Assembly: GCF_003334305.1 (NCBI RefSeq) | Contig: NZ_QOWS01000026.1 | DNA: 64,000 bases | Reading direction: 5' to 3' (one strand) | Source of the DNA: Escherichia coli | GTDB taxonomy: Bacteria; Pseudomonadota; Gammaproteobacteria; Enterobacterales; Enterobacteriaceae | Shown: in pieces, positions 48,235 to 48,552 of the stretch | How the letters are laid out: each line of letters opens with the position of its first letter | Position numbering within the stretch: the first letter of the stretch is position 1 | Program-made: the position numbers and the translations under genes | The notes under the pieces: generated by a model | What the model was told of the DNA's origin: nothing | What the model saw: the letters and a program-made list of their open reading frames with translations, nothing else | The model's database searches: none

Positions 48235-48237
48235 TAG

Positions 48238-48466
48238 TTGAAGTTGTACTACCCGGCGCAACAACGCCGGAGGTTCAAACCAGGCCCATCTGGCGTAATT
48301 GTTGCAGCCAGTTTGAACACGGACAGCGCGCAGAACCCGGAGCGTACACTGGTACGTGAGGAGTTCGAGCACTGCCCAGGTTCAAAATGGCAAATAAAAT
48401 AGCCTGATGGGACTGGTTTTTAGTTGCCGTGGAAATTTCAGCCCATCTCTGCATGGGCTTTTTTCT
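48238..48466 (+). ncRNA. glnA 3'UTR (candidate 3'UTR-derived sRNA GlnZ) ending in intrinsic terminator
   Basis: Terminator hairpin AGCCCATCTCTGCATGGGCT plus T-run at 48440-48465; enterobacterial glnA 3'UTRs are known to yield an sRNA, exact ends not determinable here. Confidence 0.35.
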
Positions 48467-48509
48467 CCGTCAATTCTCTGATGCTTCGCGCTTTTTATCC
48501 GTAAAAAGC

Positions 48510-48531
48510 TATAATGCACTAAAATGGTGCA
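48510..48531 (+). promoter_or_regulatory. glnL promoter -10 with overlapping NtrC operator
   Basis: TATAAT immediately followed by TGCACTAAAATGGTGCA dyad. Confidence 0.7.
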
Positions 48532-48552
48532 ACCTGTTCAGGAGACTGCTTT

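Follow-up and report, generated by a model that had tools for sequence, protein, structure and literature searches.

Escherichia coli glnA-glnL spacer: a highly probable O111-type allele of the small RNA GlnZ followed by the NtrC-controlled promoter glnLp

The spacer located between glnA and glnL in the glnALG operon of Escherichia coli (318 nt, exactly 48235–48552 according to the ORF calls) is, with little doubt, the O111-type allele of the 3'UTR-derived small RNA GlnZ, followed by the internal promoter glnLp and its NtrC operator. It was analyzed within a stretch of 64,000 nucleotides (NCBI RefSeq assembly GCF_003334305.1, contig NZ_QOWS01000026.1) to which we refer as the window. GlnZ, its O111 allele included, and glnLp are both already known and have been described with experimental support, and what we can add to the literature is minor, namely the repeat-family origin of the insert found in this allele and a possible sequestration of the seed. 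The gene identities, the seed, the terminator, the dyad, their conservation, the allele type, the complementarity to the targets and the repeat-family origin of the insert come from the sequence analyzed here, while expression, dependence on RNase E and Hfq, repression of the targets and repression by NtrC come from the literature.

The locus and its features

The gene order in the window is typA (minus strand), glnA, glnL and glnG, with the ORF of glnL starting at 48553. The locus is identical in E. coli E2865, where the RefSeq annotation reads typA-glnA-glnL-glnG-yshB-hemN, and a search of complete E. coli genomes found the spacer to be 100% identical to that of O26:H11 and O111 strains. The features of the locus are:

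46604–46620 and 46636–46652, plus strand: two high-affinity NtrC enhancer sites upstream of glnA (pattern search; role from PMC3870243)
46726–46741, plus strand: sigma-54 promoter glnAp2 (TGGCACAGATTTCGCT), one mismatch to TGGCAC-N5-TTGCW, its position upstream of glnA fitting
46825–48234, plus strand: glnA coding sequence, glutamine synthetase, 469 aa, with an RNase E-like AGUUU at 48209 in its 3' end
48235–48464, plus strand: glnA 3'UTR, very probably full-length O111-type GlnZ, 230 nt as in the published length
48253–48270, plus strand: 5' hairpin CCGGCG-CAACAA-CGCCGG, common to the O157-type 3'UTR (alignment and predicted folds)
48271–48419, plus strand: imperfect-palindrome repeat element, RSA-like, with outer arms at 48277–48294 and 48402–48419
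48415–48419, plus strand: RNase E-like GG↓UUUUU, immediately 5' of the seed, fitting RN↓WUU (motif scan)
48424–48435, plus strand: GlnZ seed TTGCCGTGGAAA, matched exactly and only once in the window (0.03 matches expected by chance)
48440–48464, plus strand: Rho-independent terminator, 7-bp stem, 6-nt loop and U tract (terminator scan)
48490–48509, no strand: conserved 8-4-8 dyad GCTTTTTA-TCCG-TAAAAAGC, abutting the glnLp −10
48510–48515, plus strand: glnLp −10 hexamer TATAAT, which is TATACT in many genera
48515–48531, no strand: NtrC operator TGCACTAAAATGGTGCA, from −10 to about +10, with 0 mismatches to the consensus
48540–48555, plus strand: glnL Shine-Dalgarno AGGAG (48540–48544) and ATG (48553–48555) (sequence and conservation)

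A previous sequence-only reading of this DNA had placed an intrinsic terminator at 48440–48465, which the terminator scan recovered to within 1 nt, and had described a TATAAT overlapped by an NtrC dyad, which is indeed the arrangement found, since the hexamer and TGCACTAAAATGGTGCA share the base T48515. Its features were right, but it overlooked the conserved seed and the insertion of a repeat element, which makes up most of this 3'UTR.

A 3'UTR of the O111 type

Three types of glnA 3'UTR have been described in E. coli, of 197 nt (K-12), 85 nt (O157) and 230 nt (O111), and all of them yield a Hfq-dependent GlnZ that is released by RNase E and carries the seed 5'-UUGCCGUGGAAA-3' (Miyakoshi et al., 2022, eLife, PMC9731577). 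Repression through this seed affects sucA and glnP, and in E. coli also aceE; the O111 type was characterized by a 98-nt insertion between AGGUUCAAA repeats (PMC9731577). We have assigned the 3'UTR of the window to the O111 type because it is 230 nt long, contains copies of AGGTTCAAA at 48271 and 48378, 98 nt apart, and has a single seed. It coincides with the O111-type GlnZ of Miyakoshi et al. (2022) in locus, length, the AGGUUCAAA repeats and the position of the seed next to the terminator, with no sequence difference, and within the scheme of Walling et al. (2022) it is class II-like.

The proposal that the glnA 3'UTR is the source of a small RNA has therefore been borne out by the match to the published O111-type GlnZ, and also by the RefSeq annotation of MG1655, where glnZ (b4836) appears between glnA and glnL. 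Comparison with described GlnZ sequences had been suggested as a check, and length, AGGUUCAAA repeats and seed all fit the O111 type. A northern blot, also suggested, had already been published for the O111-type GlnZ under nitrogen limitation: GlnZ and processed species, the latter not mapped, are induced on glutamine (PMC9731577). The caution that the boundaries cannot be read from the sequence alone still stands for the 5' boundaries. The O111 allele is expressed when transplanted into K-12, and isogenic K-12 strains with the O157 and O111 alleles exist (PMC9731577). Induction by nitrogen limitation, release by RNase E and dependence on Hfq have been published for O111, O157, K-12 and Salmonella, and Walling et al. 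(2022) reached the same conclusions on GlnZ for K-12, EHEC and Salmonella.

When aligned, the three alleles showed no difference from the terminator stem (48440) onwards up to glnL, and diverged upstream of it. The O157 type, or EsrF (85-nt 3'UTR), has the same seed, terminator, glnLp and NtrC operator as the window allele but lacks the 146-nt insert. The K-12 type (197 nt; b4836) also shares seed, terminator, glnLp and NtrC operator, but its seed adjoins the stop codon, and seed and terminator are separated by a segment that contains REP. Among 5,426 complete E. coli genomes, 1,571 (29%) carried the K-12 type and 993 (18%) the O111 type, while the O157 type accounted for ~2,858 (53%), a figure obtained as 3,851 minus 993; that is, 82% of the E. 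coli genomes are without the O111-type insertion at glnA-glnL. Nearly all the copies of the O111-type allele had at least 99% identity. Given that short O157-like forms are widespread, we consider the O111 type as the derived state.

Some additional observations were made on the distribution and the 5' end of this allele. A second O111-type allele, 96.7% identical across the insert, is present in the GTDB representative genome of E. coli (L010:1218-1375); in it GGGTTCAAA replaces AGGTTCAAA at the left junction, so that not all members of the O111 class keep the “direct repeat”. Two plasmid-labelled records carry the glnA-glnL spacer, perhaps through an error in the labelling or assembly of these replicons. 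At its start (48236–48252, AGTTGAAGTTGTACTAC) the 3'UTR repeats in direct orientation, with 82% identity, the final part of the glnA coding sequence located 27 nt upstream (48209–48225, AGTTTGAGCTGTACTAC), a resemblance pointing to an ancient tandem duplication that would have affected the 3' end of glnA in both the O157 and the O111 type. The RNase E-like AGUUU motif sits in the upstream copy of this repeat (48209–48225).

Conservation of the seed and pairing with the targets

The published seed 5'-UUGCCGUGGAAA-3' was matched exactly at 48424–48435, beside the terminator. The comparison of 76 glnA-glnL spacers of Enterobacterales, with lengths that span 136 to 318 nt, revealed TTGCCGTGGAAA or its core GCCGTGGAA in all but one of them; the seed is kept regardless of the length, its conservation extending from Escherichia to Yersinia and Pantoea. 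The terminator (AGCCCAT-CTCTGC-ATGGGCT at 48440–48459, then a T run to 48464) is unchanged in the three E. coli alleles.

Pairing of the seed region (48416–48439) was computed against target leaders taken from K-12, not from an O111-type strain, and compared with that of 300 shuffled seeds. The duplex with glnH-glnP reached −22.4 kcal/mol at −23 to −6, just upstream of the Shine-Dalgarno and in agreement with the published position, and only 3 of the 300 shuffled seeds were as good. With pdhR-aceE the value was −20.9 kcal/mol at −105 to −91 (2 of 300 shuffled seeds as good), and the duplex spans the published C-99 compensatory position. The pairing with sdhB-sucA (−21.0 kcal/mol) was equalled by 14 of 300 shuffled seeds and is modestly significant.

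Rfam 15 contains no GlnZ family matching E. coli glnZ, and the K-12 glnZ locus gave no match. The family RF02766 Ysr49 (Yersinia sRNA 49) has a 147-bit match in Yersinia aleksiciae, in the 3'UTR of glnA (L081:1263-1386), and matches the window weakly (21.7 bits against a gathering threshold of 95, E = 0.3), mainly over the 3' part that includes the terminator. The Ysr49 locus in Yersinia has GUUGCCGUGGAAAC and the same terminator as GlnZ, with unrelated inserts upstream. On account of the location in the glnA 3'UTR and of the same seed and terminator, Ysr49 is the Yersinia counterpart of GlnZ. The segment upstream of the Ysr49 seed resembles a partial ERIC element, judging by the ERIC consensus, and if this is true a third repeat family has been captured in the glnA 3'UTR. 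A sub-threshold Rfam match to sX9 in the spacer was treated as noise. An Rfam match to STnc370 was observed in K-12 downstream of bipA/typA (L092:6216-6284; 55.6 against a gathering threshold of 54); its place corresponds to about 44.6 kb of the window, minus strand.

Origin of the insert

By sequence comparison, the 146-nt insert of the O111 type is one copy of a dispersed repeat family of ~150 bp that is present in 5–6 copies per E. coli genome. Compared with the O157 type, the O111 type has 146 additional nt, which lie after the CGCCGG that ends at 48270 and before the TTAG (48420–48423) preceding the seed, and the insert together with the flanking TTAG corresponds to the 146 nt missing from the O157 type; the net difference in the alignment is 145 nt, from a 1-nt difference downstream. 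A sensitive BLAST search with 48271–48420 produced matches in every E. coli genome, in a median of 5 places and a maximum of 8, the copies showing 85–90% identity over ~125 nt. The record of strain CV601, which we take to be K-12-derived, had 6 such places without a copy at glnA. Other copies were located in the spacers rlmL-ycbX, pheM-pheS, hemE-nfi and qseE-qseG (L004:1501-1625, L005:1501-1626, L006:1501-1632 and L007:1501-1622). These are short spacers, three of the four lying between genes of the same strand, and both orientations are represented among the copies. MG1655 has the ycbX-rlmL copy as well, with no repeat annotated at this place in its current RefSeq record.

Aligned with each other, the copies span ~150 bp with CTWAG or TTAG as direct repeats at both ends, and the family folds as one long imperfect hairpin with 51 consensus pairs, 10 of them with compensatory changes. 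The copy of the window is 67% self-complementary over 146 nt. Its termini have diverged from those of the RSA-like family, with AAACCAG... and ...CTGGTTT in place of AGAGCCTGG... and ...CCAGGCTCT. No further copies of the repeat were found in the 64-kb window, nor was the element present in the glnA-glnL spacer of other genera (75 non-E. coli spacers), so that the insertion is specific to the E. coli lineage. The second AGGTTCAAA (48378) falls within the family consensus CAGGnyCAAAAyTGGCAA, and consequently what was presented as a 98-nt insertion between direct repeats is better described as a 146-nt insertion of a member of the repeat family. The “empty site” of the O157 type has TTAG exactly at the junction. 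We infer from these junctions a MITE-like insertion at TTAG that would have been followed by divergence of the left junction. TTAG fits the YTAR target of IS5-family transposition.

The family is probably RSA, a name that we use provisionally since it derives from length and copy number. RSA was described as 150/151 bp long with 6 copies in K-12 (PMC5172473). It is the same family as BEE95. Our family resembles these dispersed intergenic repeats in its ~150 bp and its 5–6 copies per genome. Several other known repeats were considered and discarded. ERIC/IRU did not fit by sequence, with 8–10 mismatches out of 22 to the primers ERIC1R and ERIC2 in all five copies, nor by length (127 bp) and copy number. 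The REP/BIME segment of the K-12 3'UTR does not align with the O111 insert. The RU-3 element of Delihas (103 bp, 22 copies) did not fit either, and PMC2759123 contained no strings that matched.

Predicted folding and processing

The predicted fold of the 3'UTR RNA (230–231 nt) has a free energy of −96.7 kcal/mol (z = −6.1), in which the insert makes a single long hairpin and the seed pairs with the UTR's 5' end. The mean probability of the seed being unpaired was 0.29 in the full-length O111 form, against 0.61 in the O157 type and 0.58 in the K-12 type, and 0.74 in a 48-nt RNA (48418–48465) starting just after GG↓UUUUU. According to these models, the full-length O111-type RNA would sequester its seed and a cut at GG↓UUUUU would free it. 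The motif predicts that this cut (48416/17) is the 5' end of a processed GlnZ of ~47 nt. We infer in this way the exact 5' ends in the O111-type allele, the drawing of the 5' end onto the seed by the hairpin and the need for GG↓UUUUU cleavage. The long O111 form might be a poorer regulator, given that the seed is mostly paired in the predicted fold. Going beyond this, we put forward as a speculative and rather doubtful proposal that the RSA-type, MITE-like insert at TTAG is not neutral and has made GlnZ dependent on cleavage at GG↓UUUUU by RNase E (possibly RNase III), the glnA 3'UTR being a recurrent landing site for repeats.

The same folding could be interpreted in a more radical way, i.e., that the O111-type 3'UTR is a terminator or mRNA-stability module plus a junk repeat, in which the seed is sequestered and GlnZ is functionally dead. 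The seed is mostly paired in the modelled 231-nt RNA (probability of being unpaired 0.29), and the insert is a selfish-looking dispersed palindrome. However, the allele retains an intact seed, terminator and GG↓UUUUU site, the O111 GlnZ and its processed species have been detected and are induced on glutamine (PMC9731577), and E. coli GlnZ represses sucA whatever the position of the seed (PMC9731577). Furthermore, the allele is kept in 18% of the E. coli genomes, nearly always with at least 99% identity. We consider a dead GlnZ very improbable. Even smaller is the probability that we give to an independent small RNA with its own promoter in the spacer and induced by high ammonium, which is the EsrF model proposed for the O157 allele (Jia et al., 2021); it counts on a published report, cited in PMC9731577 and by Walling et al., but the scan of the plus strand gave no sigma-70-like promoter between 48235 and 48440, and two later studies conflict with it, having found that the RNA is induced when nitrogen is low and is processed out of the glnA mRNA by RNase E.

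There is hardly any chance that the spacer encodes a small protein. The mechanical ORF list does include a TTG ORF at 48238–48402 (54 aa) and a minus-strand ORF at 48275–48454 (59 aa), but both are within the palindromic repeat, in sequence that is missing here in 82% of the E. coli genomes, and neither of them is annotated in RefSeq. The O111-type GlnZ followed by glnLp is by far the reading that we prefer.

The glnLp promoter and the NtrC operator

Downstream of GlnZ, the sequence-only reading had proposed a glnL promoter occluded by NtrC, and this agrees with the literature, where NtrC is described as the repressor of glnLp, a sigma-70 promoter (PMC9731577 citing Ueno-Nishio, 1984; PMC3870243). 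The glnALG operon has three autoregulatory loops, and this repression constitutes one of them (PMC9731577; PMC3870243). We detected no difference from the arrangement of Ueno-Nishio et al. (1984), as cited in PMC9731577 and PMC3870243, with an NtrC dyad over the sigma-70 −10 just upstream of glnL. Since the dyad extends from the final base of the −10 hexamer as far as about +10, the geometry fits a simple occlusion of RNA polymerase.

The NtrC pattern TGCAC-N5-TGGTGCA was searched on both strands of the 64-kb window allowing at most one mismatch. The only matches were 48515–48531 and the two sites upstream of glnA, all of them in control regions of glnALG, which amounts to 5 strand-matches against 0.43 expected (none of 100 shuffles reached 5). 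The NtrC enhancer sites drive the transcript from which GlnZ is cut (PMC3870243). The glnAp2 motif by itself was not above chance in the window. A full-length match to the small RNA ES222 (RF02755) was observed on the minus strand at 46534–46641 (135 bits against a gathering threshold of 62), in the typA-glnA intergenic region, in antisense orientation to glnA and overlapping NtrC enhancer site 1 (46604–46620); K-12 has this match too (L092:4219-4326).

Across the 76 Enterobacterales spacers, the block formed by the −10 and the dyad is the most conserved stretch from the terminator to glnL. Over the last 100 nt, the TATAAT/TATACT and TGCAC...GTGCA columns are at least about 90% conserved, and likewise the 3' half of the terminator and the Shine-Dalgarno region AGGAGACTGC, while the flanks are much less so. 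No recognisable −35 hexamer was found for glnLp, the best candidates matching by eye 2–3 of the 6 positions. This poor −35 accounts for the absence of glnLp from the list of the generic sigma-70 scan and is consistent with a weak basal promoter. The 8-4-8 dyad next to the −10 has perfect arms in 20 of the 72 scorable Enterobacterales spacers, from several genera, and at least 6 of 8 positions in 42 of them, while its 4-nt centre varies freely. It could be a protein-binding site or a hairpin in the read-through RNA.

A nitrogen-carbon link with three alleles

With the spacer read as the O111-type GlnZ followed by glnLp, the locus would work in the following way. Under nitrogen limitation, phosphorylated NtrC would activate the sigma-54 promoter glnAp2, and the terminator at 48440–48464 would stop most of the glnA transcripts. 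RNase E and Hfq would free the 3'UTR as GlnZ of ~230 nt plus shorter species, and the terminator-adjacent seed UUGCCGUGGAAA would pair with the leaders of sucA, glnP and aceE, leading to their repression. Repression of the targets would divert 2-oxoglutarate toward the synthesis of glutamine. The weak sigma-70 promoter glnLp, with a perfect −10 and a poor −35, would provide basal NtrB/NtrC, and NtrC bound to the dyad over the −10 and the start site would turn glnLp off in a negative autoregulation.

For the window, the result confirms a correct annotation. The locus is a textbook case of the coupling of nitrogen and carbon metabolism, in which GlnZ represses sucA, glnP and aceE and NtrC is autoregulated through glnLp. 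Three common alleles of one small RNA coexist in E. coli, and the rarest of them arose by the insertion of a dispersed palindromic repeat beside the seed. If the proposal of a non-neutral insert were true, the dosage or the timing of GlnZ would differ between E. coli lineages, and REP in K-12, an RSA-like element in O111 and an ERIC-like fragment in Yersinia would have remodelled one small RNA around a fixed core of seed and terminator.
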